From positions 1 through 64,000 of the IMG/VR virus record IMGVR_UViG_3300032213_000610: 64,000 nucleotides of DNA; one strand, given 5' to 3'. This document shows, piece after piece, positions 2,282 through 64,000 of this stretch. This DNA comes from a virus (lineage: Duplodnaviria; Heunggongvirae; Uroviricota; Caudoviricetes). Made by a program: the position numbers and the translations under genes. Below the pieces are notes generated by a model, which ran no database searches, was not told where the DNA came from, and was given only the letters and a program-made list of their open reading frames with translations. Every line of letters begins with the position of its first letter. The first letter of the stretch is position 1.

Positions 2282-2387
2282 ATTAATAAATAAATAAAGT
2301 GTATAAAATAATTAGACTAATAATAAAATATAACGCCTCGTTAATTAAATCAATTATTACCATTGCTTTTTCTTTAGGTGTCATAGA

Positions 2388-3443: not shown

Positions 3444-3570
3444 ACATAAAACTCATTTTAAATGGAGGGTCTTGAAAATAAGATTGTCCTAATTCTTCTT
3501 TAGGACAAGTGTATCTGTGGCAGTTTAATCTTAATAGACAACTACCACCATTGCATGCTGATATATCCAT
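3343..3570 (-). CDS. Cys-rich hypothetical protein (75 aa)
   Basis: CNGGSC…CHRYTC motif. Small ORF in the operon. Confidence 0.35.
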   Translation of the reverse strand: MDISACNGGSCLLRLNCHRYTCPKEELGQSYFQDPPFKMSFMFDENLDNLGVVTTACPFFWNNQDFKNERPNLEN

Positions 3571-3573
3571 AGT

Positions 3574-39133: not shown

Positions 39134-40000
39134 ATGTCTAAAGTAATAACAATAAGATTAACAAAGGCTGGCATTAGAACTGGACCGTTTAAGATTTCTG
39201 ATAACTACGGAAATGTCTTAGGAACTAATATTCCTAAGAGCCAAGTTATTTCTGGAATCACCTATTCGGTTAGTGATGATGTCACTGTTATTATTATTGA
39301 ATCTATAGGGAAATGTAAAACAAGATTACAAATGCCTATAGAGGAACTATGTATTGCAGATGTGGCAGCTATCAAGTTTGTCCCTACAGATACAGCATCT
39401 TTATGGAGACACTTAACTAACACAACAATTTACAATATATTCTACGGAAACATAGAACCTTATATTATAGAATATCCATTTGCCTATCAGTATTATGATG
39501 AGATCTTACAGAATGTAAAAGATTACACAAAGGCATATAGATACCTCCCTATACCAGATGGTGTGTTCAATGATAACGCTAAGATAGAAACAAACACAGT
39601 TTATTTCAACAAAGCTGTCCTATACAATGGACAACAGTCTTCTGGTGTACTAGAACTAGTTCCTAAACCAATTAACAACTTAAAGGAATACTTGAAGTAT
39701 CCTATGTATAACGCTGATAGTAAGACGATTATGTTTACTAAATCAGATAATTTTTATCAATATAATACATTTTGGTCATTAGTTAAAGATAAATCCTTAC
39801 CTTTGTTTGTAACAGGTTGTGACTCATTGTCTATAGATAAGGTTGTAAATCAACCAAATATGGATTATGGAAAGAGATCATTTAAGAAAGAACCTCTACG
39901 TGCGAAAGATTTAAAGGTGAGACACGTCCTAGATAATAGATCAGATGCCCATTTGATAAGTCAATTCATTATCACACCATCTCAAATCTCTTACAAATAA
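39134..40000 (+). CDS. tail-associated protein (288 aa)
   Basis: ORF coupled (TAATG) to the next gene. Confidence 0.45.
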   Translation: MSKVITIRLTKAGIRTGPFKISDNYGNVLGTNIPKSQVISGITYSVSDDVTVIIIESIGKCKTRLQMPIEELCIADVAAIKFVPTDTASLWRHLTNTTIYNIFYGNIEPYIIEYPFAYQYYDEILQNVKDYTKAYRYLPIPDGVFNDNAKIETNTVYFNKAVLYNGQQSSGVLELVPKPINNLKEYLKYPMYNADSKTIMFTKSDNFYQYNTFWSLVKDKSLPLFVTGCDSLSIDKVVNQPNMDYGKRSFKKEPLRAKDLKVRHVLDNRSDAHLISQFIITPSQISYK

Positions 40001-44568: not shown

Positions 44569-44586
44569 AACACACAAACGTTCAAT

Positions 44587-47500: not shown

Positions 47501-48426
47501 TTGGTGCAGGGATTCCTACAGTGACAGCACTTAATGCTCCCACTGCTTTAAATATGTATAATCCTGGTTCTCCTGGTTTCCAACCAACTGGAAGTAGATT
47601 ACAAGCTCCTGCAAAAGGACCAGGTGGTAGAGGTATATTTGGTACTATTGGTGATTTCATAAATGAGAATCTTGAAGACAATGGTTCTACATTAGTTAAT
47701 CAATTACTACCTTATTTAAGACCTACAAATCAGACTCCTTTAGATCCTATACAATTGGCTGGAGAGATGTATGCTTTGGCTAACAATCAGGTGGAACCAG
47801 TGTATGCTCAAACTCTACAACCTAGATTAGGCTCACCAATTGATATATCATTACAGAGTGCACTCAATGCTAATCAGGCAGATTACAATGCTTTGCTTAA
47901 GAATGTAGGATATAACCCTGCTGCTCAGTCTTTGTTAGCTGCTCAGAAGTATGAGGCTAATTCTGAGATTAAAGGAAAAGAAGCTCAAATGAACAAGGAA
48001 GAAAGAGCAAGAGTGTTTAATGAAAACAGACAATTGTTGAATGAATATGACTTTAAGAATGCAGGTATCTTGGATCAACAAATGGTAAGACAATCACAAG
48101 CTAGGTCTAATACTAAAGCTCAAACACAAGAAGCTCTTAACTCTATTGGTAATAAATACCTTCAGAATAAGAGAGAGAATAGAGAGGTGGGCATGAATGA
48201 GAACCTTTACAACTTCAGATATGATAGTAGAGGTAGACTTATTAACATGAATCCTCTAGCTCAATTTGCTATTCCAAACATAGCTAATCAACCACTAGCT
48301 CAACAAACAACAGCAACTGCTAACAAAGACTACATTCCTGTATACGATAAAGATCGCAAGAATATAGTTGAGTATGTTAAGAAGGCAAAGAATGGCAATA
48401 TTGTTAAAGCTATCAAAAATCTATAA
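44587..48426 (+). CDS. giant glycine-zipper virion protein (1279 aa), candidate ejection/pore-forming or tape-measure-like protein
   Basis: Gly-zipper stretch GAGISGQLGGGLGSVIGGGRFSQAGGAGKIGSTLGGIAGSVIPGVGTVIGSAVGGLIGGAIGG. [DE]GG[WY] motifs recur (EDGGWVSNDW, QDGGYIEY, KDGGTGED). Confidence 0.45.
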   Translation: MKDQILKIAKVKSEKEFYKKYPTEEAFMKAHGKAFKKAAMGKTMVAKQLTQLTDFANPPQANVGAYIGGDTYQNAAFKYGDFADEADANVTGNAAPMRVQNVQPPMGGAKQNPYAFNAGTTGMRNIDWENVGADILPQLMQMQGGGIISAQGGVRIPAFASTIPTSTRPTKAPAANMTNIGNMLSNPAFQQGKINQAKGLKMSPSMKPTSLSSKIGSGVINNAGNILQGINMLSDERRQKKMAKQSVAVTDVVGKAAGTRPEISKRRYVTQYDTAIQPGELGNPYGEGTTPLVMQDGGGIGGNPTEIQNTFDPNTIYTNLEYEPLNDRNIKQYNKGGKLKKAQVGAGISGQLGGGLGSVIGGGRFSQAGGAGKIGSTLGGIAGSVIPGVGTVIGSAVGGLIGGAIGGKNARETADLEEQAQNNIMGSALQQGARSIQSNYSGFMQDGGYIEYPQAQAGTIADRSVGQFCGIQRGINKENARMNAEAAKQMKGLERQATRDEKQAAKEAAAALAGQTELTHEFDDTPLDKKVVKQLNAIRDQYLQTNPNVFVADDTSGYTPQQKYALAIKLMDKGSRHTFGQAFQNQFGVPSKGIGSLERVHSELVPKMGGWEGVKNWLFNPIPLKYYNMKEDGGWVSNDWQPQVIASFGEHKMKDLLKPPHDAPMLRAGGHLKEYTAPSERAMETYDMGGELETHWGGYMEPISQNPYLPDGGVTVMPRGQSHSESDGKGNTGIGITFGDNPVEVERGEPMVKLKDGGTGEDNLVVFGNMKIPNYGLEDFDKKAKGKKFKTYAADLTETEAKQNKLINKSTEKLDDLDMLTEFDKLELNSLQANIMGGNMKLKDIADKKQKLGDLQQSIHATAPEFGYEDVDKFNKDVMKGKVKAKKGKVNSDMPEAQYGFNINKIVPQVNVPGKTPLPDPNASYPANSAVQKLIKSIVPQQPVANFPLRPGFMYNPPAYLYQNVPAVNYNVGAGIPTVTALNAPTALNMYNPGSPGFQPTGSRLQAPAKGPGGRGIFGTIGDFINENLEDNGSTLVNQLLPYLRPTNQTPLDPIQLAGEMYALANNQVEPVYAQTLQPRLGSPIDISLQSALNANQADYNALLKNVGYNPAAQSLLAAQKYEANSEIKGKEAQMNKEERARVFNENRQLLNEYDFKNAGILDQQMVRQSQARSNTKAQTQEALNSIGNKYLQNKRENREVGMNENLYNFRYDSRGRLINMNPLAQFAIPNIANQPLAQQTTATANKDYIPVYDKDRKNIVEYVKKAKNGNIVKAIKNL

Positions 48427-48512
48427 CCAATTTAATTATACCAGATTAACAAAAATCATTAGAACTCTTGGTATATATAATAATTTAAATTACATTTGCT
48501 AATCATATTATC

Positions 48513-51086
48513 ATGGCATCATTTACCGACCAAATATCAAAATTTAATCCTTACGTAGAACAGCTTCCCGTTGAAACGATGAAGCAGGTGGGTCTGTATA
48601 AACAGCAGAAGTATGATGAGGGTGTTGAGAAAATCCAGGGATATATAGATACTATTGCTGGACTTGACGTTATGCATGACTCAGATAAGGAATATTTGCA
48701 ATCTAAGCTTAATGCTTTGGGTAACAACCTTAAAGGTGTTGCTGCTGGAGACTTCTCTAACCAACAACTTGTTACTTCTGTAGGAGGTATGGCTACACAA
48801 ATTAGTAAAGATTATAATGTTCAGAATGCTGTATCTTCCACCAGTTGGTATAGAAAACAAACTGAAGCTATTGAGGCAGCTAGAAAGGAAGGTAAAACTG
48901 CAGCATCTAATATTGATGATTGGGAAGAACAAGTGAAAGGATGGCTTGGTAAGAAAGAAGCTGGACAAGTGTTCAGAGGACAATATAGTCCTTACAGAGA
49001 TGTAAACAAAAAGATATTTGAAGCAATCAAACTTGTACACTCTGATGCTCAAAGTCTTGATACAGCCTATGGTCTTGATAAAGATGGTAAGGTGGACATG
49101 AATAATGTACTAGCTGCATTAAAAAGACAGGGGATTGAAACTGTAGATGAAGGAAAACTTCGTACAGCTATTGGTGCTGCATTAGATTCAGAAGATTACC
49201 ATCAGTTATACATTGATGGTAAATACCAATTAAAATCTACCACTCCTGAACAGCTTATGAACTATGCTACTAAGGATTATCAAAGATCAAAAGATTACGC
49301 TAAGGCACAAATTGAAAGAATCAATAAAGACCTATTAACTGCATCTACAGCAACTGGTCAAGCTAGACTATTAGAAAGTAGAAAACATTTTGAAGAAGTG
49401 TTAGGTGATCCAGCTAAGGGTATAAAAGGAACATTAGATCAAAACTTTGAAGCTACATTGCAGTCTATTAAAGATAATCCTAATGCTGCTAGAGGTAAGA
49501 TATATACAAAGAATTATATAGATCAGTTTGCTAATGGGTATGCTTGGGCTAATGTTAAAGATGAATTGCTTAATAATCCAGTTAGAGAAGACTATTGGAA
49601 AGCTAAAAATTATAACCTTGCGGTAATTAGTGAAGATCGTGATTGGGTAAAAGCACGATTTGATATGTCTATTGCTGCACGTACAGCTGATAGAGAAGAT
49701 AGAAAAGAGGCTAGAGAAGAACAAGAAAGACTTGGCAGTTCTCCTTTCTTTATAAGAAGTGGTGATCCAACCACTGATACTAATACAGCATATGCAAACT
49801 ACACTGCTAGTAATGCTAAACTAGAAGATCAAAACAATGGTATTCTAAATGATTTAGCAGGCAAGTCTAGCACATTAACAACTAAAGTTTTACCAGCAGA
49901 TATTCTTAAAAATATTAATAATTATCAAGACGGTAAATATAAACCTAAAACAAGGTATGAAGCTCAACAAATGGAGGCTTATATAGATAATCAAAATAAG
50001 CTAGCTAATCAAAAGGCAATCCATGATGAACTTCAAAATCAAGCTACAAAAGAAATTACAGGAACAACGTATGATGGATACTTAAAAGGTATTATAGGAA
50101 ACAGAAGACCTATTACACTTACAGATAAGAATGGACAGAAAGTTACATTTAGTGCAAATGAAGTTTATAATTATCTTTCTAAAGAAAAAGCTACAACAGA
50201 TGTTGCTGGTGATACTCCTGTATCTACAATTAAAATTACAGAACCATTAACCCCTAAAGAAAAATTATTACAGGAGAAACTAAAGAATAGATACTTAGGG
50301 TTACCTGGAGGAGATAAAGTGTTAAATGCTTACATTTCTGATTTTGATAAAGTTAAATCTCAACAGTTTAAAACTGATAAACAAATTGCATTAAAGACTG
50401 CTGAGAAGTTAGCTCCTATAACTGGAGGTTTTGCAACTGAACAAGCTGGTATAGTGTTTGCTAAAGCAGATGATAAAGCTAAACTTGTAACAGATTTAAC
50501 AAATATTGCTCAAGCAGATCTTCAACAAAAAACTGGTGCTCTTGGTTATGTACCTAAAAATTTCATTGCATATCTTACTAAAAAACCTTTAGAAAATGTT
50601 GATTTCCAAACAGTTAGAAAAGGTGATGAATATTTTATAAAAGCTGTAGATAAAACTAATCCAGATGATGTTGAATTAATGCCAGTGACTAAATCTTTTG
50701 TGGCTCAAAATCCACAGCTAGGAAATAAATATCTAAATCAAAATACTGACTTAGCTGATATATTGCTTAGAAACAGTGGATCAACTAATGCATTTAAAGA
50801 TTACAAACACGCTAGCTATCAAAATGGTAAGCTTGGTAATTATGATGTAAATGGAAAGAAGACAGTAAATATACCTGTAGTGGCAGATCTAGAATATATG
50901 GGTGGTCAGTTATATCCTGTTTTCCGTTTTAGAACAAAAGATGGTAACTTTATTAACGTGACATCTTTTGAACCAACAAGTAGAAAAGCTTTTGAAGAAC
51001 AGTATTTACCATCTTTAACAGATGAGAAACTTATGAATTTATTTAAGTCTGCAAATCCTAATGCAGATCAATTAATACAAAGATAA
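48513..51086 (+). CDS. large virion protein (857 aa)
   Basis: Long ORF immediately upstream of the giant gene. Spurious antisense ORFs overlie it. Confidence 0.45.
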   Translation: MASFTDQISKFNPYVEQLPVETMKQVGLYKQQKYDEGVEKIQGYIDTIAGLDVMHDSDKEYLQSKLNALGNNLKGVAAGDFSNQQLVTSVGGMATQISKDYNVQNAVSSTSWYRKQTEAIEAARKEGKTAASNIDDWEEQVKGWLGKKEAGQVFRGQYSPYRDVNKKIFEAIKLVHSDAQSLDTAYGLDKDGKVDMNNVLAALKRQGIETVDEGKLRTAIGAALDSEDYHQLYIDGKYQLKSTTPEQLMNYATKDYQRSKDYAKAQIERINKDLLTASTATGQARLLESRKHFEEVLGDPAKGIKGTLDQNFEATLQSIKDNPNAARGKIYTKNYIDQFANGYAWANVKDELLNNPVREDYWKAKNYNLAVISEDRDWVKARFDMSIAARTADREDRKEAREEQERLGSSPFFIRSGDPTTDTNTAYANYTASNAKLEDQNNGILNDLAGKSSTLTTKVLPADILKNINNYQDGKYKPKTRYEAQQMEAYIDNQNKLANQKAIHDELQNQATKEITGTTYDGYLKGIIGNRRPITLTDKNGQKVTFSANEVYNYLSKEKATTDVAGDTPVSTIKITEPLTPKEKLLQEKLKNRYLGLPGGDKVLNAYISDFDKVKSQQFKTDKQIALKTAEKLAPITGGFATEQAGIVFAKADDKAKLVTDLTNIAQADLQQKTGALGYVPKNFIAYLTKKPLENVDFQTVRKGDEYFIKAVDKTNPDDVELMPVTKSFVAQNPQLGNKYLNQNTDLADILLRNSGSTNAFKDYKHASYQNGKLGNYDVNGKKTVNIPVVADLEYMGGQLYPVFRFRTKDGNFINVTSFEPTSRKAFEEQYLPSLTDEKLMNLFKSANPNADQLIQR

Positions 51087-51088
51087 CA

Positions 51089-54000
51089 ATGCCAGGAACC
51101 GATTTATATTCTACGCAAGATAACGTACTGCCTACCAATAAGATAATGGAAGTTGGATCCCCTAAGGTATCTGGCCCTATGAATCTATTTGTTGAATCTG
51201 GTGAAAGAAGAGCAGACTATCTGCCTCCATTACCTGAACAGATTGCTCCTACAGTTACTACAAAAGAATTGTATGACAATAGGAAGTTTGGATTATACAA
51301 TCCAAATAAGACAGAGGAAGATTATGCTTATGGTCAATCTGCTTTAGATAAAGCTGGTAATGGTATAGCTAAACTTGCTGGTACTACAGCATCAACTATT
51401 GTTAATAACACAGTTGGTCTATTATATGGAATAGGTGCTGCAACGGTTAACCAAAGGTTCTCATCGTTATATGATAATGAGTTCTTTAAAAGAATGGACG
51501 CTGCTTCTGAGGAGATGAGAAATATGTTTCCTCACTATTACACAGAAGCAGAAAAGAAAGATCCTCTTGCATTAAAGTCTGTATTTACAGGTAACTTTTT
51601 ATGGGATAAGATTGTTAGCAATCTAGGATATGCAGCTGGTGCTGCTGTAACTGCTTATGGAGCAACTGCTGCATTAGAAGCATTACAACTATCAAAAGGA
51701 TTGGTAGCTGCTGGTAGAGGATTACAAGCATTAGAAGCTACAGAAGCTGGAATAGCTGAAGGTAGAGGTATGGCTGGTATAGTTCAAGCATTAAAGAATC
51801 CAAGATCTGTTGCAAGTAAACTTGGTCAAGGATTAGAATCATTAGGTACAATAGAAGCAGGGGCACAAGCTTCTAAAGCCACCCAATTACTATCTTCCTA
51901 TTTAGGTATATCTGGAGAAGCTGGTATGGAAGGTTTTCAGAATGCTAAACAGTTCAGAGAAAATGCTATTGCTAAATTTAAGAAAGAGAACGGTGGTCTA
52001 GAACCAACTGGTCAAGACTTACAGAATATTCAAGATGCAGCAACAAGTGTTGGTAACTGGAGTTATGGTTTAAACGTAGCCCTACTTACAGGAACTCAAT
52101 ATGTACAGTTACCAAAGATATTTGGTTCTACATATGCTGGTGAGAAGAAGATATTAAACAATGTTATATTTAAAGATAACTTATGGAAATCTTCTCTTCC
52201 AGAGAAAGGTTTTGGTAAGTTCTTATATAAGACTGGTAAGGTGGGGTCTTTATTCTTTAATACAGCAGAAGGTTTTGAAGAAGGTGCACAATTTGCTATT
52301 GGAGAAGGAACACAAAACTTCTTTAATAAGAAATATAGAAGTGGTGACCAAACAAGCTTCTGGAACTCTCTTGGTGGTTTATTAATGCCAGGTGGAGAAG
52401 GTGTATTAGGTTATGGTACAGGTCAAGCATTAACAACTGACGAAGGATTAGAAAACATATTAATAGGTGGTTTGTCTGGAGCATTAATGACTTCAGGTGT
52501 TGTAGGTACCAAAAGAACAGAATCTGGTGCTACAGTTCCTACCATGTTCCAAACTGGTAAGATTGGAGAAAGAGGTTTCACTGGATATGGTGGAGAAAGA
52601 GGTAGATTTACAGAGGAAGCTACAAAAGCATTAAACTCAGCGAAGGTTACAGACTTAATTGATTCTGTAAACAGAGCAATGACCATCAATGAAGATAGAG
52701 AGAAAACATTAAGACAAGGTGATATTCTACAGAGTAAAGATCTTGAAACTGATTACATGTTAAACTATCTTCTACCAAGAATTAAGTATGGTGGAGAAAC
52801 TATATTTGAAACAGAACTAGATGCCATTAGACAAAAGGCAGCAACAGATGCTGGTTTTGGGGAACTTAAGTCTGCAGGTACAGCAAATGAAAATGACACT
52901 CAAGAAGCATTCATAGCTAGAGCAAATAACATTCAAGCTATGGCTAAGACTGTAACTGAGAACTATGATAAGTTCAAGACCAAGTATGCTGGCTTAGCTA
53001 AGACTAAAGAAGATGGTACTCCTGAGCTAGATGCAGATGGTAACTTACAAAGGAAGTATGACGATGCTACAGTGGACAAGATGGTATACACTGCATCTAA
53101 GATATTTGACTATAACACTAGAATCCCTGCACTAACTACTAAACTATCTACTAGTAATGTAGATGTAACCACTATATTAGGTGAGATTAATTTCACTGGT
53201 AAACCAACTGTAGAATCAGTTGAAGAAGCATTGAAGACAATCAATGATTTAAATGAAACTGATTCTAATAAGACTGAATTAAAAACTTCTCTACAGGATG
53301 TTATTGAATTAGCATTACGTAGAAACAAGTTTATTGATGAGTTCAATAACATTGAAAAGAATCCAGAGAAGTATAAAGAGGGTGTTGATGAAACTATCAC
53401 TAAAGGTGATACGGTTAAGATTAAGCAGTTTGATACTGGCGATAAAGGAAAGATTGTAAGTAAAGAGATTGAGATAGGTAAAGAGTATTCTTTAGCTAAT
53501 CCTCTAGCTAACGTAGGTGGTAAGTTACAATTTGCTCCTAAGTTAACTGTCCTTTCTAAGACATTGAGAGGTGAGTTTGAAGTGAGACTTCCTAATGGTG
53601 AGAGAGCTTTCTTATCTCCTTCAGACTTCAAGAACTACCAATTGTTTGGTGCTTCAGAAGATACCAGTACACTAGAAGATATATTAGACAAGGCTATTAA
53701 TAAGGTGTTGTCTAAGAGTAAATATAATGATGTAGTTAAACCTACAGAAAATAAATTAGAATATATTAACTCATTGAATAACAGTGAGTTAGTAGATGAG
53801 ATTGAAAACGAATTTAGAGCTCAGTCTGAAGAATACTTAAATGAAAGTGCTAAGGAACAAGAAGCTATTGAATCTGCAAACCTTGAAAAAGAGTTAGTAG
53901 AAACTCAAGATGTAGATAATGTTCCAACAGCAGACTTTGATTCTGGTTCATTTGATCCTAGTCCTAAAAAGACAGATCAACAAGTAGTTGATAGTACTAG

Positions 54001-57000
54001 TGCTCCTGTAGAAGGTTTCTCTCAAGATGTACTAGCTCCTCATCATATACGTGCTAATAAGTTTGGTGCTAACTTCTATGATCTTCCTGGGAAAGATAAC
54101 TTCCGTGGTGTTATTGTAACATCAACTAATGAAGCTAAGATTGGCTTACCTGGATTAACACAATGGTTAAAGACTCAGGGAACTAATGCTGCTAGTATCA
54201 AACCAGAAGAAACTATTGCTTTAGTTATAATGGGAACTGATCCTATTACTAATGAAAGATTCTTTGTAGGTGTTAATGGTGAAAGACTAGAAAACCCTAC
54301 ATTAGAAAACACTATATATCAAGTGTTCCCTAAGACTCTTACACAGTCAAATGGTGACTCTATGTTTAGAGTTGATAATGATACAACAGAACAATACACT
54401 AAAGAATATAAAGCTTGGAGAGAAAGCACATTAAAGAATCCTTCAATTGACTTATATAAAATAGGAGCATCGTTTGGTGTTCCTGATAGAATTCCTTCAG
54501 CTTCTATACCTGTAGTTAGTTCTGGTTTAATATCAGCTGATGATTTAAATACTAGAAAAGTTATTGGTATTCCTACAACTGATGGTGCTGTTGTATATGG
54601 TTCTTCTACATTTGAAGGTGCTAAGGGTGTTCCTTTATTATATACATCTAATGGATTAATTAGACTTAATAATAGAAAGAATACTAAAAAAGAAGCTGAG
54701 CTTATATTTGATGTTATTGAGAGATTGGCAAGCAATCTTATTAAAGATAAAAACCTTAAGTCTGGTGAGTCTCAAGCATTATACAATTGGTTAAAATCAG
54801 TTGTATACTGGGGAACTCCTCAAGATGCTAATGGTAATAGAAAGCCTGCAGCTTATAGTAGCATATTCTTTGAGAACATGCAACTATTAATTGGTAAGGA
54901 AGAAACTAAGTTTTCTATCAAGCCTTCTGACCTCAAGCAAAACAGAGAAGCTATCGTTGATAAGTTACAGGAAATGTACAACAACGTTAACTCTACACTT
55001 ATTACTGGTGGTCAAACAAAGCAATGGAATAAGCCATACACTGAAATTACAGGTATTGAGGGAGATAACATATTAACAAGAGATTGGAAGAACTATCAAA
55101 CCTACTTGCTATCTAGTGAGTCACTTCCTCTTTCAACAAGTGTTAGACCTCTTAACAATGAAGAAGATGTTAATAGAAAGGGTATCTACTTCACTGTATA
55201 TGATAAGAAGGGTAATACATCTAATGAGGTTCCTGCTGCAAAACCAGTTAAGAAGGAAACAGCTCCTGCAGCTCCTACAGCTACAGCTGCCCCAAAAGGA
55301 TATGTTATAGATGGAAAAACAGAAAATACTATTTCAGTTCCTAAACTGGGAGATGTATCTTTTATTGTTGACCCTAAAGCATTTGAAGAGTCTAATGGTA
55401 CAAAGGGTGTTGCATTAAGCGTTCCTGAAGTAACATTAGAAATCACAATAGGTAAGTTATTAAGTGTTCCTAACTCTGGCATTACAGAGGAAACCTCTGA
55501 TGAAGAAGCAACAAAGATTGCTGAGAACGTATTAAGGAACATTATTATTAAAGAGATTAAAGCTCAATTAGCTCCTGCTGCTCCAGTTGTTCAACCAACT
55601 GCTGCCCCTGTTTCTACAGATGGTGCTAAAGCTACATTTGATAGTGCCATAGATCAAATCAATAAATCTTTAGGTAATAAAATAGGAACAGGGATATATG
55701 AAAATTCTCCAAGAATCATTTTTGAATTTGATGGTAAAGAACCATCATCTCCTAGTTTCTTGACAGAACCTATAACTAAAGAAGGAACCCTTTACAGAGT
55801 TAAAACTTCTAGATATAATGTTTTAATAGATGACACATTTAATATTAAACAAGTAGTAAGTGATAAAGGGAAAGTGTATACTGTTAAAGAGGATGAACTA
55901 TCTACAGTTGATATACAATCTCCACTATTTGATCAACCAAAAACAACAACTGTTTCTACAGAGTCTGTAGATAAGAAAGCTGATATAGAAAAGAGAAGAC
56001 AAGAAGAGTTAGAACCTATTGGTGATAAAAAGTTTTTAGATTCTAAAACTGAAGTATCAAGAATAACTTATAATGTAGAGAACGCTACCACTGATACTAG
56101 TGCTAGTGGTAATATAAAAGTAACTGTTATTACTTATAAAGATGGTAGTAAAAGAACAATAACTACTGTTGAAGATGGTTCTAAAACTCCATTAAGTGAT
56201 ACGTATGATGGTTCATTATCAGATGAAAAAATTGTACAAACTGCTTCTGGTAATGGAACCATTGTTGGAAATGGAGTAAAAGAAGATACAGTAAAATCTG
56301 CTCAAGAGAATAAAATAGATAAAATCAATGCTAAGTATGATGCAGAGTTAGCTGCTTTAGAAGGACAACCTGCAGTTGCTGTACCTGCTTTAATATCTCC
56401 TGTTATACAGTCTAGTTTAGATATGCTTTCTAAAGCACAGGAGTTGTTAGATGCCCAATCTAAAAAGTTTGAAAAGTACATACCTGCTGTACAGAAGTAT
56501 TTAGATACTAAAAAACAGCAGCTACAAGATCCAAAGCTTACAGTTGAACAACGTGAAAAAATAGCTAAGACTATTGAGATGGATATGAAGATACCGATTG
56601 TATCTTTAAACAACTTAGTTCTTGAATTTGCTCCAAATGGTCGTCCAGAAAAAATATATATCAACAATCCTGAAACTAAAAAGAATTATTACTTTACTGC
56701 TTTCTTTCAGGAAAATGGAGAAAGAAACTTTGAAAACAATCCAAACTATGCTTTTAATCAAAATGAAAGGTTAGGACAGGGAAGTGATTATAAATATAAT
56801 ATTGTTTCTAAAAACTCTATCATACCTGTAGAAGGTCTTAATCTGAGAGAAGCTGAAACCCTAAGACATTTTTTATCTGGAGCTGATTCAGGGGCTACTC
56901 AGTATGCAGCTCATGATACTGATAATCTTGGTCAAGGTCTTTTAATGGGTGTAATTAAACACTACTTTATAGAGAAGGCTGCTGGTAGAATGCAACGTGA

Positions 57001-60000
57001 CTATTGGGATTATCTACAAGATCCTCGTAAAGAGATGCGTGAGCAAATTGAAGCTATGGAAGCCCAACCAGTTGCTGCTCCTGTTGCTCCTACACCAAAT
57101 GTATCTGCTAACTTACAAGCTAAAATTAATGCTAGAAAGAAAGCTGGTCCAACTAAGAGAGGTAGTGAATATAGACTTAAAGTTGAAGATCAATTAAAGA
57201 AGTTCCAATCAGAAAACTGGAGTAAGGTTGAGAAGTTTTTAGCTAAAGCTTTACCAAACGTTCCTGTATATAGAGTGAAGAATCTTATTCAAGCTACTAA
57301 TGGCAAACAAGCTTGGGGTATGCTTAAGGATGGTGCAATCTATCTATATGAGAATGCTGAGGTGGGTACAGTGTATCACGAGGTGTTTGAGTCTGTATGG
57401 AAAATGTTTACAACAGCAGAAGAAAAAGCTTCTATAATCAATGAGTTCAAAGGTAGAAAAGGAAGCTATACAGATGTATTCACAGGTAGAGATATCAAAT
57501 ACTCTGAGGCTACAGATCAAGATATTAAAGAGAAACTTGCTGAAGAGTTCAGAGATCAAATGTTATCTAAAGAAGCTAAGAAAGATAAGTCATTGATTTC
57601 CAGAATATTCTCACAAATCATAGACTTCATCAATAAATTCTTTATTGGAGATGGTGCACAAGAGAATACAGATAAGCTATTCGAGAACATTGGTTCTGGC
57701 TATTATGCACAATACTCTCCATTACATGGAGCCCTATCTTATGCTAAACAAGGAATCATAGATATTGAGGATGCTGTAGGTAACGATGATGCTGAATATA
57801 GAATCACTGGATTCACAGGTACTCAGTTACATGATGTCATCCAACACATGACCTATACAGTGGTTAAGGATTTGTTTGAAACAAACGAAGGTTTGTTTAA
57901 CATCCCTAATCTAAACAAGACTCAAGTCTACTCAAGACTCCAAGATGAGATGGGTGATTTGATTGCTGATAATGTTACTGAGCTAGAGAAAATGACAGAT
58001 GTTTCTGATGAAGAAAGAAGTGTTGCTATTGAGGCACAGAATACATTATATGCTAACATCCTAAACAACTGGGAATCTATTGTAAACAAACACGAAGAAT
58101 ACCTTAAATCTTATTCTATTGAGTTTGATGAGAACGATGAGTTGTCTTTAGGAGATGAAAAAAGCAAAGATGATCCTTATGGTGATCCTTCTAAGATAGA
58201 CCACATGAAGAAGGCTAATGCTGCTATTAAATTATTGTTAGCTAGTCTTCCTGCTGTATACAACGATGGTTCAGAAAGATTATCATCTATTGGTGGCTAT
58301 ACATTAGTACCAATGAGTGAAGCTTACATAGGAGTGATGAACAACGTAAGTAGTTCAAAGACTATTGATGACATGGTTAGTAAGCTAAAACAAATGTCTG
58401 ATAATGATCCTAAGTATACAAAGCTTTACAATCGTTTAACTAAGTTAAAGGAAATCAGTCAGTTAGATAATCAGAATGACATTAAGTTATTATCTGCATT
58501 CTGGAGAACATTCAAGAAGCAATCTCCTACAGTTAAGAACGTATATGTTCTAGAGAATGGTGATGTGCAGGTGGGTGATTCTAACTTTACAGCTGCTGCT
58601 AGACAAGTGGAAGAAGGATTTGCTAATAACATTATTAATGCTGTTAACAACGGAAACAAATATATTACATATTCAGCCACTAGTAACTCATACATAGGTA
58701 ATGAAGATTCTATTAAGGACGCAAAGCTTGATAGTTTACTAGCTCAAGTGAACTTCTTAAAAGAGTTTGGTATTGAGTTTGACTATGATAGACTAGTTAA
58801 AATGCGTGAGAAGACTACATTCTCAGAAGCAGTTAATGGTATTAGAACAAGTATTGCTGGTGGTAAACGTTTAATGACTGTAAGTGGTAGAACTCTTGAC
58901 ATCAACAAACGTCTATATCAACTATCTGAGATTAAGGCTATTATGGATAACCCAGAGTTCAGCAGTACATTCTATAATGTTAATGGTGAACTTACACAAA
59001 CATTTATTGGTACAAACGCAGCTAGTGATCTATTTGATGTCCTATCACAGATTAATAATATCAATGAGTTACAGGGTACACAATACGAATATTTATTAAC
59101 GGATACATTTGCTAAGAATTCAAACATGCTTTATAGAATGTTTGATCGTACAAGTGGTAATCGTATTGCAGATACAGAAGACTTAATGCAAACAGCTTAT
59201 GCTGATGGTACTGTTGATGAAGATAGTGGTAAGCAAAAGCAGTCTTCTAAATTAAACTATAAAGAAAGATTATTACAAGAACTTAACCTTAACCTTTCTG
59301 GTTACTACTTAAACCTAATCCCTGGAGATGCAACTCTTGAGTGGATGATGAATATGGGTAATCCTATTTCTAAAGATGACATTCTCCTTAATCTCAATCG
59401 TGTATATGATATATTCAAAGGATATTTCATAGATGAGATGAACCTAGCTAGAGAAAATCGTAATGTAGCAAAAGATAGAGATGCTTTAGAGTTACGTTTC
59501 TTCAAATCTATTCTTGGTGAGAAGTTGCATAACAATATAATGGCTGAGGAAGGTGAGGTGTTTACAGCAGAAGAGATTTACAATGATAACAAAAAAGCTA
59601 TCGATGATGCTGTTGCTAAATACATCACACTTCAAAAGGACAGATTAGCAACCTCTCTAGAAGATTATGGTATTATGTCTGAAGTGGGTAATGGTTATAT
59701 GGTGGAAGGTTTATCTTTTGCTAAAGAAGATGTAGTTCCATTTGATGAAATGGACAGACAGTTAAAAGTGTTATCTATCAATTACATGATTAATAACATT
59801 GAACTTCATAAGATATTATACTCAGATCCTTACCAATACTCAGATGAGCTTAAACGTATTAAAAGCTTTAACTCACCTAGACAATCTATTGTAAGTGGAT
59901 CTGATTCATTTAATAGTGCTGCAAATAAGATTTGGAATAAGGGTGTGGCTGAAGATAGTATTGGATACACAGACTTCAACAAAGACTTCTTTAGATCTGT

Positions 60001-63000
60001 TACATTAGGAGATGTTATTGCAACTTCTGACCTACCTGATTATGGTTCTTTTGAAGAGACTGATGGTGGTGGTATGATTACCATGAAAGCTTATCGCAAC
60101 TTCTTAATACGTGCTGGTGAGTGGGATGGTAATAAAGAAAGACAATATAAGTATGATATTGCTTATGAGAAAAAGGTTAAGGGTATTAAGTTATCATCTG
60201 TTGATAGGAATGCTTTAAAGAAGGGTAACCCTGGAATTAAGAGTGCTTACACTCCAATCAAACCTATTGTATCTGGAAACAAAGCTAATGGTAGAAACTT
60301 TAATGATATTGTATTAGATAAGTTTGCCCTTTTCCCATTGAGTTTCAGAGTGTTACATGAAATGAATCCTGAATCTAATGCTGTCAAGTTGTATAACAAG
60401 ATGCAAGAAGAGAATGTGGATTATGCTGTATATAATAGTGGTAGAAAGGTGGGAGCTGAGGCTGTTCATGAGTTATATAAGAATGGTAAGTTTAATGAGG
60501 CTCCTTTCCAAACAGAGAAGCAAACAGAAAATAAAGACTTAAAGCAAGGGATTATTAATATTCCATTTAGCATCATGAGCATTCAGTCTGAGGTTCCTTC
60601 TAAAGATGATGGTATTGTTACTAGAGGTTCTCAAATGACTAAGCTTGTTACATTAGACTTCATGGATGCTGGTGTACCTATTGACTACAATCCAACTGGT
60701 ACATTCACAGAACGTTATATGGAATGGTTTGGTCTTTCTGAATCAGAAAAAGAAGCAAAATCTCCTCTATATAAAGAGATTAAGAACAACCAACAAATCC
60801 TAGAGGATATGATGGAGGTTGGTATAGATTCTCTACTTAAGACATTTGGTATTACTAAAGTTGATGGTGGATATAAGATTGATGATTTTGAAAAGGTTGT
60901 AGAAACTTTACGTAAAGAGTTTACAAAGAGAGAAGTTAGTGATAATTTAAGTGCTGCTCTTAGAGGATATTCTACTGGTAATGTAGTGGCTGAAGCAACT
61001 CCTGCATACAAACAAATTAGAAACATTCTATATTCTATTGCTGATAGAGAAGTTATTAGCCCTAAGGTTAGTGGTGGTATGAAGGTACAAATCCCTTCTA
61101 CACTATTAGAATCTGAAAGAATCAAGTCTAAAAAAGGAGCATACACATCTGATGTATTGAAGTTCTATGTAGATAAAGATGGTCAGCGTGTGTGTGAGAT
61201 TATGGTGGGTAGATGGTTTGAATCAGACTTATCTGATGAAGATCTTCTTAAGAAATTAAACAGCACTTCTGAAGGACAAAGAATATTAGAAGGTGTTGCC
61301 TTCCGTATTCCTACACAAAAACAAAACTCTATTGATGTATTCAGAGTGGCTAAGTTCCTTCCTAAGGAGTTCGGTGATTCTGTTGTGATTCCTTCTGCTT
61401 TAGTGAAGAAGGTTGGATCTGACTTTGATATAGATAAATTATCAATCTACCTTAAGAACGTAGATGATAGTTCTAGAGGACTACCTAGACTTATATCTGT
61501 TAATGGTAAGGGTAAGTCAAACCTAGAGAATGCATACATTGAATCTTTAGAAAGGCTTATATCACATCCTTTAAACTTTAAGAACCTAGTTAAACCTAAC
61601 TCTGCAGATCAATTAAAGAAGTTGTCTGGTGAGATAACTGAGAAGTTAGGATTTGGTACATTTGATTATAAGGATCCAGGTAACATGTTAGATAGACGCT
61701 TTATGTCTAGACTTAGACATGCGTTTGTATCTGGTAAGTATGCAATTGGTATTGCTGCTGTTAACCAAACAAACAACTCCTTGAACCAAAGACAACCTAT
61801 CTATATTGACTTTGAAGGAAGATCTGGACTATTAGATGATGGTGATTTAAAATGGCTAGGTGATGGTAAGATTAACTTCCCTGAATACAATAAGATTGAG
61901 ATACCTGGAAAAGGTGTATTCCCTACATTATCAATGACTAGAAATGCTGAGAGAAGTGAAAAATTCCCTCAAGGTGAATACATCTCTGATATTCTTGGTC
62001 AGATGATTGATGGTTATGTGGATATCTCTAAGGGTCCATGGATCATGGAATTAGGTGCTACACCAAACGTAGCTTCTACATGGATGTTCTTAACTAAGGT
62101 GGGTGTGCCTATTGAAACTGTTGCTTATTTCATGAACCAACCAATCATTCGTGACTACTTACGTACGTTAGAAAAGAATGGTCAAAGCTGGTTGTTTAAT
62201 GATAGAACAAACAACAGTATAAAAAGAAAGTACAAAAGTAATAAGATTACTGTTAAAGAGATGCCTTCTCTTGAGAAGTTACAAAACACTGTAGGTAAGA
62301 AAGAACTAACTCAAGTTGAAAAAGCTGAACAAACATTCATATTAAAAGAGTTCTTGAAATACGCTAAGATGGCTGAACAGTCATTCAACGTTACCCAAGG
62401 AACTAACTTTGATACAGCTTCTTTCAATGATCCATTCTTGGTATTCAAGAAGTTGAAACAACTAATGAAAGCTAGAAACACAATCTTCACTTCTGTGGAT
62501 GATATGTTAGACAATGCTTTCATTGGTAAGTTGAAAGATACAATTGTTGAACTAAGAGATGCTTTAGCTACTATTCTTAGAGCAGACCAAGGTAATGTAA
62601 GAGAAGTTATCCAAAAAGTACTCACTCCATACGTAGGTATGAATGATAGAGACTTTGTTAAGACCTCTCAAAGAGTTGTAGCTACATTATTTGACTGGGC
62701 TGTTCAAACACAGAATGGATTAAATGCTGAAATTACAGACATCCTTCTTAACAAGGATACTAATGTGGCTAAGGAAATCAGTGAGTTTGTTAAACCTATA
62801 TTGGATCCTGCAAATGAAAATCATCCTTTACATAACAATCAGGTATTAAGAATATTACAACCTTTGTTTGGTAAGCCAGGTGAGGTGAATAACATTAAGA
62901 TTAAGAACAAAGCTAATAAGGTGTATGACCAAAATCAAATCACATATGCTTTTGTTGAATTAAAAGAATACTTAAAGGGTGAGGGTAAGATTGATTTGTA

Positions 63001-64000
63001 TGACAGATTAGTAACATTGTCTATTCTACAGTCTGGTTTAAATGAGTCTAATATATCATTTACATCTCAGCTTCCTTATGAAGATATTGTAACACAATAT
63101 AATAATGTAATTGCTGACCTACCTGCAAACGCAAACTTAGATACATTTGCTAGCTTGAATGTGTTTGAAAGAAACTTCTGGAACTTTGATGATGTGGTTC
63201 CACATCACAAGGCTACTTACAGATTTGATTTCTATACACAACAAACCTATTACAATGAAGAGATGAAATTTGGAAGTGGTATCTATGATGCAATGAGAAA
63301 AAAAGATCTTCCTTTATTATTGAAGGTGAGATCAGGTAGCAAAGAAGCAAACTATGATGTAATTGTACATACGTGGGAAAAAGAAATCTCTACTTCTGAG
63401 AAGAGAAAAATGAGAAAGGATGGTGACTACTCATATAAGAAAAAAGGTTTATTCAAGTATGTAGGAATCATTCCTAGTGCTGATGGCTTATCTGAAACAT
63501 ATTTATACAAGCTTATCAATGCTTGGGGTGATGGTACAAAAGCTAATGAGTTCTACACAGATAACAGAGAGTCTGTTATAAACAATGGTTTTGAAAAAGC
63601 TGATGAGTCTATACCAGATGATGTTATTCTACAATACTTCGGTGTTACTAAAGAGGAAATGGTTTCTCCATTACCAGAAGAAGTAGCTGTGTCTCCTGAG
63701 ATACAAACCTCAAACGTAGTGGTTAATGCTGTTCCTAAGGAGAATGAAATCATAGGTAACCTTGCTATGCAGAGTGACAATGTAACTAGAATCAAGGCTG
63801 GTACTAAGACTATCACCAACAGAACTGAGAACTACAGAGATGGTGTATATGCTCTTCCTGATGGTTCAAGAGTTGAGTTAACTAACCTTGGTCAGTTCCA
63901 AGTGGTGGGTGATAGGGTGATAAGTGATAGAGTGGTAGATGGTGAAACTAGTTACTCCCTAGATGAGTTTGCTAAGAAGGAAGGATTTCAAGACTGGCGT
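51089..64000 (+). CDS. giant ORF (at least 4304 codons, 3' end beyond window) with beta-prime-like double-psi beta-barrel motif; candidate virion-packaged RNA polymerase polyprotein
   Basis: Manual codon-by-codon reading from ATG 51089 to 64000 meets no in-frame stop. Length 12,912 nt is a multiple of 3. No other ORF of 60 aa or more occurs on either strand here except short antisense or out-of-frame ones. Contains …GVAFRIPTQKQNSIDVFRVAKFLPKEFGDSVVIPSALVKKVGSDFDIDKLSIYL… at 61291-61440, plus coiled-coil and A/P-rich linkers. Confidence 0.7.
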   Translation, partial: MPGTDLYSTQDNVLPTNKIMEVGSPKVSGPMNLFVESGERRADYLPPLPEQIAPTVTTKELYDNRKFGLYNPNKTEEDYAYGQSALDKAGNGIAKLAGTTASTIVNNTVGLLYGIGAATVNQRFSSLYDNEFFKRMDAASEEMRNMFPHYYTEAEKKDPLALKSVFTGNFLWDKIVSNLGYAAGAAVTAYGATAALEALQLSKGLVAAGRGLQALEATEAGIAEGRGMAGIVQALKNPRSVASKLGQGLESLGTIEAGAQASKATQLLSSYLGISGEAGMEGFQNAKQFRENAIAKFKKENGGLEPTGQDLQNIQDAATSVGNWSYGLNVALLTGTQYVQLPKIFGSTYAGEKKILNNVIFKDNLWKSSLPEKGFGKFLYKTGKVGSLFFNTAEGFEEGAQFAIGEGTQNFFNKKYRSGDQTSFWNSLGGLLMPGGEGVLGYGTGQALTTDEGLENILIGGLSGALMTSGVVGTKRTESGATVPTMFQTGKIGERGFTGYGGERGRFTEEATKALNSAKVTDLIDSVNRAMTINEDREKTLRQGDILQSKDLETDYMLNYLLPRIKYGGETIFETELDAIRQKAATDAGFGELKSAGTANENDTQEAFIARANNIQAMAKTVTENYDKFKTKYAGLAKTKEDGTPELDADGNLQRKYDDATVDKMVYTASKIFDYNTRIPALTTKLSTSNVDVTTILGEINFTGKPTVESVEEALKTINDLNETDSNKTELKTSLQDVIELALRRNKFIDEFNNIEKNPEKYKEGVDETITKGDTVKIKQFDTGDKGKIVSKEIEIGKEYSLANPLANVGGKLQFAPKLTVLSKTLRGEFEVRLPNGERAFLSPSDFKNYQLFGASEDTSTLEDILDKAINKVLSKSKYNDVVKPTENKLEYINSLNNSELVDEIENEFRAQSEEYLNESAKEQEAIESANLEKELVETQDVDNVPTADFDSGSFDPSPKKTDQQVVDSTSAPVEGFSQDVLAPHHIRANKFGANFYDLPGKDNFRGVIVTSTNEAKIGLPGLTQWLKTQGTNAASIKPEETIALVIMGTDPITNERFFVGVNGERLENPTLENTIYQVFPKTLTQSNGDSMFRVDNDTTEQYTKEYKAWRESTLKNPSIDLYKIGASFGVPDRIPSASIPVVSSGLISADDLNTRKVIGIPTTDGAVVYGSSTFEGAKGVPLLYTSNGLIRLNNRKNTKKEAELIFDVIERLASNLIKDKNLKSGESQALYNWLKSVVYWGTPQDANGNRKPAAYSSIFFENMQLLIGKEETKFSIKPSDLKQNREAIVDKLQEMYNNVNSTLITGGQTKQWNKPYTEITGIEGDNILTRDWKNYQTYLLSSESLPLSTSVRPLNNEEDVNRKGIYFTVYDKKGNTSNEVPAAKPVKKETAPAAPTATAAPKGYVIDGKTENTISVPKLGDVSFIVDPKAFEESNGTKGVALSVPEVTLEITIGKLLSVPNSGITEETSDEEATKIAENVLRNIIIKEIKAQLAPAAPVVQPTAAPVSTDGAKATFDSAIDQINKSLGNKIGTGIYENSPRIIFEFDGKEPSSPSFLTEPITKEGTLYRVKTSRYNVLIDDTFNIKQVVSDKGKVYTVKEDELSTVDIQSPLFDQPKTTTVSTESVDKKADIEKRRQEELEPIGDKKFLDSKTEVSRITYNVENATTDTSASGNIKVTVITYKDGSKRTITTVEDGSKTPLSDTYDGSLSDEKIVQTASGNGTIVGNGVKEDTVKSAQENKIDKINAKYDAELAALEGQPAVAVPALISPVIQSSLDMLSKAQELLDAQSKKFEKYIPAVQKYLDTKKQQLQDPKLTVEQREKIAKTIEMDMKIPIVSLNNLVLEFAPNGRPEKIYINNPETKKNYYFTAFFQENGERNFENNPNYAFNQNERLGQGSDYKYNIVSKNSIIPVEGLNLREAETLRHFLSGADSGATQYAAHDTDNLGQGLLMGVIKHYFIEKAAGRMQRDYWDYLQDPRKEMREQIEAMEAQPVAAPVAPTPNVSANLQAKINARKKAGPTKRGSEYRLKVEDQLKKFQSENWSKVEKFLAKALPNVPVYRVKNLIQATNGKQAWGMLKDGAIYLYENAEVGTVYHEVFESVWKMFTTAEEKASIINEFKGRKGSYTDVFTGRDIKYSEATDQDIKEKLAEEFRDQMLSKEAKKDKSLISRIFSQIIDFINKFFIGDGAQENTDKLFENIGSGYYAQYSPLHGALSYAKQGIIDIEDAVGNDDAEYRITGFTGTQLHDVIQHMTYTVVKDLFETNEGLFNIPNLNKTQVYSRLQDEMGDLIADNVTELEKMTDVSDEERSVAIEAQNTLYANILNNWESIVNKHEEYLKSYSIEFDENDELSLGDEKSKDDPYGDPSKIDHMKKANAAIKLLLASLPAVYNDGSERLSSIGGYTLVPMSEAYIGVMNNVSSSKTIDDMVSKLKQMSDNDPKYTKLYNRLTKLKEISQLDNQNDIKLLSAFWRTFKKQSPTVKNVYVLENGDVQVGDSNFTAAARQVEEGFANNIINAVNNGNKYITYSATSNSYIGNEDSIKDAKLDSLLAQVNFLKEFGIEFDYDRLVKMREKTTFSEAVNGIRTSIAGGKRLMTVSGRTLDINKRLYQLSEIKAIMDNPEFSSTFYNVNGELTQTFIGTNAASDLFDVLSQINNINELQGTQYEYLLTDTFAKNSNMLYRMFDRTSGNRIADTEDLMQTAYADGTVDEDSGKQKQSSKLNYKERLLQELNLNLSGYYLNLIPGDATLEWMMNMGNPISKDDILLNLNRVYDIFKGYFIDEMNLARENRNVAKDRDALELRFFKSILGEKLHNNIMAEEGEVFTAEEIYNDNKKAIDDAVAKYITLQKDRLATSLEDYGIMSEVGNGYMVEGLSFAKEDVVPFDEMDRQLKVLSINYMINNIELHKILYSDPYQYSDELKRIKSFNSPRQSIVSGSDSFNSAANKIWNKGVAEDSIGYTDFNKDFFRSVTLGDVIATSDLPDYGSFEETDGGGMITMKAYRNFLIRAGEWDGNKERQYKYDIAYEKKVKGIKLSSVDRNALKKGNPGIKSAYTPIKPIVSGNKANGRNFNDIVLDKFALFPLSFRVLHEMNPESNAVKLYNKMQEENVDYAVYNSGRKVGAEAVHELYKNGKFNEAPFQTEKQTENKDLKQGIINIPFSIMSIQSEVPSKDDGIVTRGSQMTKLVTLDFMDAGVPIDYNPTGTFTERYMEWFGLSESEKEAKSPLYKEIKNNQQILEDMMEVGIDSLLKTFGITKVDGGYKIDDFEKVVETLRKEFTKREVSDNLSAALRGYSTGNVVAEATPAYKQIRNILYSIADREVISPKVSGGMKVQIPSTLLESERIKSKKGAYTSDVLKFYVDKDGQRVCEIMVGRWFESDLSDEDLLKKLNSTSEGQRILEGVAFRIPTQKQNSIDVFRVAKFLPKEFGDSVVIPSALVKKVGSDFDIDKLSIYLKNVDDSSRGLPRLISVNGKGKSNLENAYIESLERLISHPLNFKNLVKPNSADQLKKLSGEITEKLGFGTFDYKDPGNMLDRRFMSRLRHAFVSGKYAIGIAAVNQTNNSLNQRQPIYIDFEGRSGLLDDGDLKWLGDGKINFPEYNKIEIPGKGVFPTLSMTRNAERSEKFPQGEYISDILGQMIDGYVDISKGPWIMELGATPNVASTWMFLTKVGVPIETVAYFMNQPIIRDYLRTLEKNGQSWLFNDRTNNSIKRKYKSNKITVKEMPSLEKLQNTVGKKELTQVEKAEQTFILKEFLKYAKMAEQSFNVTQGTNFDTASFNDPFLVFKKLKQLMKARNTIFTSVDDMLDNAFIGKLKDTIVELRDALATILRADQGNVREVIQKVLTPYVGMNDRDFVKTSQRVVATLFDWAVQTQNGLNAEITDILLNKDTNVAKEISEFVKPILDPANENHPLHNNQVLRILQPLFGKPGEVNNIKIKNKANKVYDQNQITYAFVELKEYLKGEGKIDLYDRLVTLSILQSGLNESNISFTSQLPYEDIVTQYNNVIADLPANANLDTFASLNVFERNFWNFDDVVPHHKATYRFDFYTQQTYYNEEMKFGSGIYDAMRKKDLPLLLKVRSGSKEANYDVIVHTWEKEISTSEKRKMRKDGDYSYKKKGLFKYVGIIPSADGLSETYLYKLINAWGDGTKANEFYTDNRESVINNGFEKADESIPDDVILQYFGVTKEEMVSPLPEEVAVSPEIQTSNVVVNAVPKENEIIGNLAMQSDNVTRIKAGTKTITNRTENYRDGVYALPDGSRVELTNLGQFQVVGDRVISDRVVDGETSYSLDEFAKKEGFQDWR

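Follow-up and report, generated by a model that had tools for sequence, protein, structure and literature searches.

The stretch of DNA considered here (the window, 64,000 nucleotides, positions 1 to 64,000 of the IMG/VR virus record IMGVR_UViG_3300032213_000610, Caudoviricetes) ends in a giant open reading frame (ORF) on the plus strand, which begins at ATG 51089 and is still open at the window end. The product of this ORF is very probably a DNA-dependent RNA polymerase of the crAss type, with two barrels in a single chain and packaged in the virion, orthologous to gp66 of Cellulophaga phage phi14:2 and to Gp50 of crAss001, and fused with a virion protein of the gp67/Gp47 type in a chain of about 4500 amino acids (aa). 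A search of IMG/VR found 25 related loci, and the conservation layout given below is drawn from 22 related viral contigs. The ORF and the parts of its polymerase module are as follows.

51089..64000, plus strand: giant ORF of 4304 codons, without a stop before the window end; full length probably ~4500 aa
57086..63688, plus strand: gp66-homologous virion RNA polymerase module, aa ~2000-4200; conserved in 22/22 related loci examined
60263..60625, plus strand: first (beta-like) double-psi beta-barrel, aa ~3059-3179; from the strand pattern of the model, invariant columns and three-way identity
60446-60448, plus strand: K3120 in GRKVG of the first barrel; invariant, equivalent to gp66 K1065
60704..61057, plus strand: helical connector between the barrels, aa ~3206-3323; matches the gp66 Connector (1095-1238) by model and residue identity
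61064..61453, plus strand: second (beta-prime-like) double-psi beta-barrel, aa ~3326-3455; carries R-I-P-T-Q at aa 3406-3410
61421..61435, plus strand: catalytic motif DFDID (aa 3445-3449); counterpart of gp66 1361-DFDID-1365
61694..61786, plus strand: bridge-helix equivalent, aa ~3536-3566; a 31-residue helix in the model, aligned by BLAST and hidden Markov model (HMM) to gp66 1529-1559
61979..62095, plus strand: trigger-loop equivalent, aa ~3631-3669; D3645 is equivalent to gp66 D1612 (gp66 trigger loop 1598-1636)

Translation of 51089-64000 (plus strand) gives 4304 codons without a stop, while the remaining five frames contain 142-700 stops each. At the local base composition the probability of a stop is 0.080 per codon (one expected per 12-13 codons), and the chance of 4304 stop-free codons is ~1e-155. 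The GC content at codon positions 1/2/3 (0.458/0.351/0.239) is of coding type with uniform periodicity, and the standard code suffices for the gene, with no need for recoding. The nearest upstream in-frame stop lies at 51059-51061, so ATG 51089, which sits 3 nt past the stop of the preceding 857-aa ORF (48513-51086), is the first possible start. This start is supported by an 86%-identical relative (L013), which shares the identical N-terminus MPGTDLYSTQDNVLPTNKIM; the ORF of this relative runs 216 aa past the point matching the window end, and judged from it the complete product here is probably ~4500 aa. The giant open frame is a real coding gene. A first-pass annotation, made from the letters of the window, had reported a stop-free ORF of at least 4304 codons and had ascribed its omission from the ORF list to its running off the window; both statements are correct, the remaining ORFs of at least 100 aa within 51089-64000 being all antisense and 104-173 aa in length. 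The peptide that it quoted at 61291-61440 is likewise present, with RIPTQ starting at aa 3406 (nt 61304) and DFDID at aa 3445-3449 (nt 61421-61435).

A frame of this size could also arise as an assembly or sequencing artefact, in which a lost stop or a frameshift merges two or three neighbouring genes (gp67-like and gp66-like). Such an origin would fit the occurrence of the two modules as separate genes in phi14:2 and crAss001, and the breaking of the region into several frames in two related contigs (L004 and L005), but these broken versions resemble indel-prone assemblies, the coding periodicity is uniform over all 4304 stop-free codons, and more than 20 independent IMG/VR contigs carry an intact ORF of 3763-4828 aa across the junction, with 103 cluster representatives of at least 4000 aa, their core at residues ~2400-3700. 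In view of the >20 independent intact ORFs the artefact is rejected, and we consider it extremely improbable.

The polymerase assignment is carried by homology to gp66, by the fold and by the catalytic residues. BLASTP aligns ORF aa 2895-3457 with gp66 863-1373 (E = 4e-19, GSDFDIDK identical), and a second high-scoring segment pair, ORF aa 3494-3689 with gp66 1500-1656 (E = 7e-6), spans the bridge helix and trigger loop, giving a homology that covers >700 residues and includes both barrels, the connector, the bridge helix and the trigger loop. Searched against the whole PDB, a profile built from 42 clade members has 6vr4_A as its sole match (E = 1.1e-37). The AlphaFold2 model of aa 2880-3720 (predicted local distance difference test, pLDDT, 81.2; predicted template-modelling score, pTM, 0.79) has 6VR4 as its top Foldseek match (E = 1e-23, template-modelling (TM) score 0.61, 932 columns), followed by QDE-1 (E = 2.6e-5) and maize RDR2 (E = 4.7e-3); the significant matches are exclusively two-barrel RNA polymerases, and cellular beta-prime chains appear only in the non-significant tail. 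The barrel boundaries listed above are taken from the secondary structure of the model, without superposition.

At the level of residues, 55 positions are identical across the ORF, gp66 and the polymerase of the crAss-like phage cr108_1, each at least 90% conserved in the clade, including K3120, R3406/P3408/Q3410, D3445/D3447/D3449/K3450, K3550 and D3645. In the bridge-helix equivalent, G3549 aligns with gp66 G1543 and K3550 with K1544. The pattern D[FY]D[IV]D is kept in 112/120 giant cluster representatives. Annotated phages that match the polymerase core belong only to Crassvirales (22-31% identity) and include phi14:2 g066, annotated as "Catalytic RNA polymerase subunit". The combined evidence from sequence and model supports the assignment of aa ~2000-4200 as an ortholog of the phi14:2 gp66 virion RNA polymerase. 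It also agrees with the first-pass annotation, whose beta-prime-like catalytic barrel motif is borne out by the gp66 homology, by the model of aa 2880-3720 and by the conserved catalytic residues. The double-psi barrel fold that it anticipated around DFDID is found in the model (pLDDT 81.2, match to 6VR4 at E = 1e-23), the kinship that it proposed with gp66 and QDE-1 is recovered with 6VR4 first and QDE-1 next, and the second, beta-like barrel that it proposed to look for upstream is present, with its conserved Lys (K3120 in GRKVG, equivalent to gp66 K1065).

If the DFDID motif were incidental, the protein could be a structural or other non-polymerase protein. Pfam, PHROGs and NCBIfam searches of the whole ORF give nothing above threshold, and RefSeq orthologs are named 'nuclear pore complex protein-like', 'DNA helicase', 'exonuclease V' or 'DprA-like', both of which would suit such a protein. 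These names are without support in any domain search run, however, the gp66 homology extends over >700 residues, far beyond the motif itself, and the fold search is significant only for two-barrel RNA polymerases, which leaves the non-polymerase alternative with next to no probability. Such names are misleading; they stand in the records NC_055894, NC_055872, NC_055868, NC_055892 and others, the last of them in full as 'DprA-like DNA recombination-mediator protein'. At the nucleotide level, megablast against 50,697 phage records gives no match. For the gp66 Cleft-blocking domain (aa 196-233) no alignment to the ORF was obtained, and the model of aa 1981-2490 has no match to 6VR4.

The enzymology of gp66 was described by Drobysheva et al. 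(bioRxiv 10.1101/2020.03.07.982082, later in Nature; structure PDB 6VR4). The gp66 protein is present in the virion, enters the host by ejection and transcribes early genes in a rifampicin-resistant manner, each Asp to Ala change in 1361-DFDID-1365 abolishes RNA synthesis, and the motif is conserved across crAss-like phages (bioRxiv 10.1101/2020.03.07.982082). The crystal form is self-inhibited, with the Ile at motif position 4 leading to a non-canonical conformation (bioRxiv 10.1101/2020.03.07.982082). These last two properties would be compatible with a polymerase module that is catalytically dead in the present lineage and serves as a purely structural internal virion protein, but none of the three Asp has been lost, nor have the invariant residues around them, and the retention of D[FY]D[IV]D in 112/120 giants points to purifying selection on catalysis; we regard a dead module as highly unlikely and continue with that of an active polymerase.

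Upstream of the polymerase module, the N-terminal half of the ORF contains two further conserved blocks.

51326..53188, plus strand: N-terminal conserved block, aa ~80-700; homologous to the N-terminus of crAss001 Gp47 (gp67 position)
53786..55588, plus strand: second conserved block, aa ~900-1500; conserved in 15-21/22 related loci, with Pro/Ala-rich linkers at its bounds

Conservation of the N-terminal block among the 22 loci spans aa 50-850. The block is Gly/Ala-rich, with hydrophobic uncharged segments at aa 96-122, 317-342 and 454-472. In tblastn, aa ~80-700 match crAss001 Gp47 and genes of IAS, cr85_1 and a Dulem virus (E = 1e-11 to 4e-16), the genes of crAss001, IAS and cr85_1 being annotated 'RNA-polymerase subunit', and ORF aa 1989-2188 match the C-terminus of crAss001 Gp47. 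Gp47 in crAss001 is placed like gp67 in phi14:2, which lies directly upstream of the polymerase. From the Gp47 matches at aa ~80-700 and aa 1989-2188, together with the gp66-type C-terminal half, it follows that the ORF is, by sequence comparison, a fusion of a Gp47/gp67-type virion protein with a gp66-type polymerase, and the first-pass suggestion of a polymerase fused to further ejected-protein domains holds, with aa 80-700 matching crAss001 Gp47, IAS and cr85_1. The second block (aa ~900-1500) matches no family in Pfam, PHROG, PADLOC or NCBIfam, and a PADLOC search with the N-terminal 1627 aa gives no match. Pro/Ala-rich linkers mark several module boundaries, one of them a Pro/Ala linker at aa 1381-1403.

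The N-terminal block (aa 76-418) is also 27% similar (E = 1e-10) to a 5.9-kb structural gene of Cellulophaga phage phi17:2 (L007, NC_021798.1, 7707-13580), and a similar gene is present in phi4:1. The Lightbulbvirus phages that carry this structural gene are non-crAss phages in which nothing matches the polymerase core, so that the N-terminal module circulates without being tied to the polymerase.

The fused form is widespread. In IMG/VR, >20 independent contigs, sampled at different places or times, encode a single intact colinear ORF of 3763-4828 aa, and when the core is searched against 1.84 billion cluster representatives it gives 2364 matches, 718 of them at E <= 1e-30. The best new representatives include 103 with a length of at least 4000 aa, of which 69 reach at least 4300 aa, and 120 giant representatives have a median of 4290 aa and a maximum of 5544 aa. 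A gene of 4400 aa stands at this position in the RefSeq phage cr6_1, under the name "nuclear pore complex protein-like protein". Polyprotein fusions of such polymerases were already reported in the gp66 paper (bioRxiv 10.1101/2020.03.07.982082), in which Drobysheva et al. note a 'single huge polyprotein', citing Yutin et al. 2018. The rarity of the giant form that the first-pass annotation implied is not borne out, given the fusions in the gp66 paper, the 4400-aa gene of cr6_1 and the 4000-5500 aa typical of the clade. The enzyme family is characterised and its fused state already described, and in a large clade, for the most part environmental, the giant form is the rule.

Departures from the intact form are also seen. 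In the ENA contigs L004 (ERZ1699696 contig_5834) and L005 (ERZ25039459 contig_123092) the gene is colinear over ORF aa 43-4170 and scattered over all three frames; these may be indel-rich assemblies or truly disrupted genes. In cr108_1 (L003, NC_055878.1, 11380-11671) the polymerase gene is annotated in two ORFs, with the break right at the catalytic motif, gp54 ending at profile position 655 and gp53 beginning at 656, with a 290-nt gap between them. Yutin et al. in 2021 reportedly described introns and disruptions within DxDxD, which the cr108_1 split fits.

Comparison of the 22 related contigs gives the layout of the whole chain, in which aa 50-850 are conserved, 900-1500 conserved, 1512-1980 hypervariable and 2000-4200 conserved, followed by a variable tail beyond ~4200. 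The junction and the tail contain the following features.

55622..57082, plus strand: hypervariable junction region, aa 1512-1998; from comparison with relatives
55970-57082, plus strand: lineage-specific in-frame insertion of ~370 aa, aa ~1628-1998; absent from L013 (86% identical) and from P0211
57176..57613, plus strand: zincin-like motif module, aa 2030-2175; YHEVFE at aa 2096-2101 (nt 57374-57391), then LAEEFRD
63701..64000, plus strand: first part of the variable C-terminal tail, aa 4205-4304; truncated where the window stops

A search of 5.8 billion proteins gives no real homolog of the insertion, the lone match (P0211) covering only the flanking aa 1596-1627, and the insertion has no match in PDB or PADLOC. 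It holds a short motif, INAKYDAELAAL, that is 11/13 identical in phi14:2 gp67.

Downstream of the insertion, YHEVFE...LAEEFRD (aa 2096-2158) aligns with the HExxH motifs of the crAss001 Gp47 C-terminus, cr108_1, cr6_1 and P0051. The canonical HExxH is absent from the ORF, which reads HEVFE at aa 2097-2101, with Glu for the second His. Among the 120 giant representatives HExxE occurs in 64 and HExxH in 26, in an otherwise identical context, AEVGTAYHEVF[H/E]AVW; the alternation of His and Glu at this second metal-ligand position is seen in relatives P0067-P0210. The model of aa 1981-2490 (pLDDT 72, ~50 around the motif) has no Foldseek match at E < 0.7, and Pfam gives none. Since the model lacks a significant Foldseek match and Pfam is empty, we use the term 'zincin-like motif' only, at the level of the motif.

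As judged from these sequence features, the HExxE/HExxH module, which follows the Pro/Ala junction linker, may process or activate the polyprotein. Alternatively, the polypeptide could stay uncleaved and work as one ~4500-aa chain, its N-terminal half serving as anchor or ejection conduit and its C-terminal half transcribing, with HExxE a structural relic. The Glu at the second zincin position, found in the ORF and in 64/90 giants where the motif can be scored, would suit a relic, as would the lack of a zincin fold or family match in Foldseek and Pfam and the maintenance of the fusion across a very large clade; a precedent for a giant chain of this kind is the uncleaved ~3500-aa virion polymerase of phage N4. 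However, His and Glu alternate while the residues around them stay identical, which suggests that a metal site is conserved rather than decaying, the modules are flanked by Pro/Ala linkers, equivalent modules function as separate proteins in other phages, and the gp66 authors expect cleavage of such polyproteins (bioRxiv 10.1101/2020.03.07.982082). An uncleaved chain is possible but in our judgement unlikely, and we favour a polyprotein that may be processed.

Homology with most relatives stops at aa 4170-4200. Within the window, the tail gives a sub-threshold score for the ASCH family (E = 0.067), the complete tail of L013 matches no Pfam family, and the last 600 aa have no match in phages. 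In relatives, the tails that follow the polymerase module contain NADAR (E = 1.3e-10) or DUF7831 (E = 5e-37) domains (P0023 aa 1408-1553, P0034, P0024 aa 1385-1493). In the ORF itself no effector domain is identified by Pfam, NCBIfam or PADLOC searches.

The replication genes of the phage lie in a block on the minus strand and include a family A DNA polymerase and a DnaB-like helicase. The late block, on the plus strand, contains in order the terminase, portal, capsid and tail genes, a crAss001 Gp44-like protein of 1677 aa, three large genes and the giant ORF, which lies at the end of this block next to other giant genes, the setting ('transcription gene block') expected of a gp66-type polymerase.

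40000..51086, plus strand: three large upstream genes (1522, 1279 and 857 aa), Cys-poor

These three genes likely encode further internal or ejected virion proteins, to judge by their sequences. The last four late genes contain 4, 1, 0 and 1 Cys in 1522, 1279, 857 and 4304 aa, respectively, which amounts to 5 in 3658 aa for the three upstream genes and 6 in 7962 aa with the giant ORF included. The neighbouring tail and structural genes of the window have 1-4% Cys, and the depletion is confined to the last four genes; among the giant relatives the median Cys content is 0.044%.

The N-terminus of the 48513-51086 product matches an 845-aa gene of Leptolyngbya phage Lbo-JY46 at the equivalent position. 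This phage also gives the best match to the terminase (39.6%), followed by Cellulophaga Lightbulbvirus phages (33%) and crAss-like phages (27-29%); neither Lbo-JY46 nor the Lightbulbvirus phages are classified in Crassvirales, and the present phage would be crAss-like in a broad sense, its host probably a member of the Bacteroidota. Lbo-JY46 (PP438436.1, L010-L012, 62354-88698) has syntenic giant late genes of 1654, 845, 1552 and 2748 aa. The 2748-aa gene was considered as a polymerase ortholog and rejected, having no DxDxD and no profile match; it contains two HExxH motifs. From its sequence, this cyanophage seems to be without a virion polymerase.

In relatives of the giant ORF the polymerase is followed by a further gene, 1300-1900 aa long. 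In L013 the similarity of this gene to gp65 is not significant, and in L008 and L009 the downstream genes have weak matches to gp65 and Gp49; the third partner is probably a separate gene beyond the window. Elsewhere in the late block, a DNA-repair exonuclease-like gene (30728-31978, plus strand; PHROG 704, E = 6e-46) lies between tail-related genes. A tRNA scan of the window found none.

The homology, the two-barrel fold, the catalytic residues and the fused architecture are kept in many contigs under purifying selection. By analogy with gp66, the polypeptide would be made late in infection and packed in the capsid as an internal protein, then ejected through the tail together with the DNA at the next infection, where the polymerase module would bind Mg2+ via the three Asp of DFDID and transcribe early genes without the host polymerase. 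Features of the sequence suggest that the Gly/Ala-rich hydrophobic N-terminal block may act in ejection or envelope crossing, and that the near-absence of Cys would suit unfolded passage.

Several points weigh against this assignment of a fused virion polymerase. Packaging, ejection and activity are carried over from a homolog that is only ~22% identical. The gp67 equivalence of the N-terminal part is drawn from similarity to crAss001 Gp47 and from gene position, and a direct BLAST comparison of the ORF with phi14:2 gp67 yields nothing significant, apart from the 11/13 match of INAKYDAELAAL. The zincin-like module is without fold or Pfam support and has Glu, not His, as second metal ligand, and the 3' end of the gene falls outside the window. 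Finally, single-sequence phmmer against PDB, with the whole ORF or with a 1000-aa core (window 59489-62488), misses 6VR4 even at E <= 10. The PDB library used for phmmer contains 6VR4, and its detection took BLASTP, a profile or a structure model; because BLASTP, profile and fold search all succeed, the phmmer miss reflects a limit of sensitivity and does not count against homology.

Some of the features described above may be new, namely the HExxE variant, the ~370-aa orphan insert, the variable tails and the extreme Cys depletion. In polyvalent proteins, a single polypeptide delivered by the virion unites a number of unrelated domains, effector or enzymatic, and a peptidase for processing is often among them (Iyer et al. 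2017, PMC5512222). These four features leave room for a more speculative reading, in which the junction insert and the C-terminal tail are swappable payload slots for lineage-specific host-takeover or anti-defence domains, injected with the polymerase and released by the H/E-polymorphic module. We think this improbable, more so than an uncleaved chain, though far from negligible; if true, the crAss-type virion polymerase would double as a polyvalent effector-delivery protein.

For the fused virion polymerase itself, the analysis provides a functional label for a gene left blank by every domain library tried. A fused form of 4000-5500 aa is no oddity but what this large, chiefly environmental clade normally has, and the natural variation of the clade (HExxH versus HExxE, fused versus split, inserts and tails) is useful for questions of polyprotein processing. 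The current picture of how transcription starts in these phages is unchanged.

Among known systems, phi14:2 gp66 shares with the ORF the single-chain two-barrel architecture, GSDFDIDK, the Lys of the beta-like barrel, R-I-P-x-Q, the bridge-helix Lys and the trigger-loop Asp, as well as the location at the end of the late/structural block. It differs in being a separate 2180-aa protein, whereas the module described here is the C-terminal half of ~4500 aa (identity ~22%), and in having no HExxH-type motif, whereas the ORF has HExxE where the module begins. In crAss001, Gp47 (2341 aa, 'putative RNA-polymerase subunit') resembles ORF aa 90-490 with its N-terminus and ORF aa 1989-2188 with its C-terminus, which includes HExxH...AE(E/G)F; unlike in the ORF, Gp47 and Gp50 ('putative RNA polymerase') are separate genes, Gp49 and Gp50 are on the opposite strand, and the motif is HEAFH. 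KNV52_gp36 of cr6_1 (4400 aa, Suoliviridae; L002, NC_055894.1, 4490-17692) is, like the ORF, one giant gene in which the DxDxD polymerase is joined to the HExxH module and the upstream module, but it comes from the human gut, is only ~23% identical and reads HEGFH. Translated with table 11 it contains 58 standard stops in frame, as would be expected if a stop codon is reassigned in cr6_1.

More distant are Neurospora QDE-1 and plant RDR2, the next-best structural matches, which are likewise single-chain two-barrel enzymes with a connector, but which have no detectable sequence similarity to the ORF and are cellular, non-virion proteins of ~900-1400 aa with DxDGD-type motifs. The virion polymerase of coliphage N4 (~3500 aa, Schitoviridae) resembles the role proposed for the ORF, being giant, capsid-packed, ejected and active in the transcription of early genes. 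Its fold is that of the unrelated T7-like single-subunit polymerases, which makes it an analogue and not a homologue.

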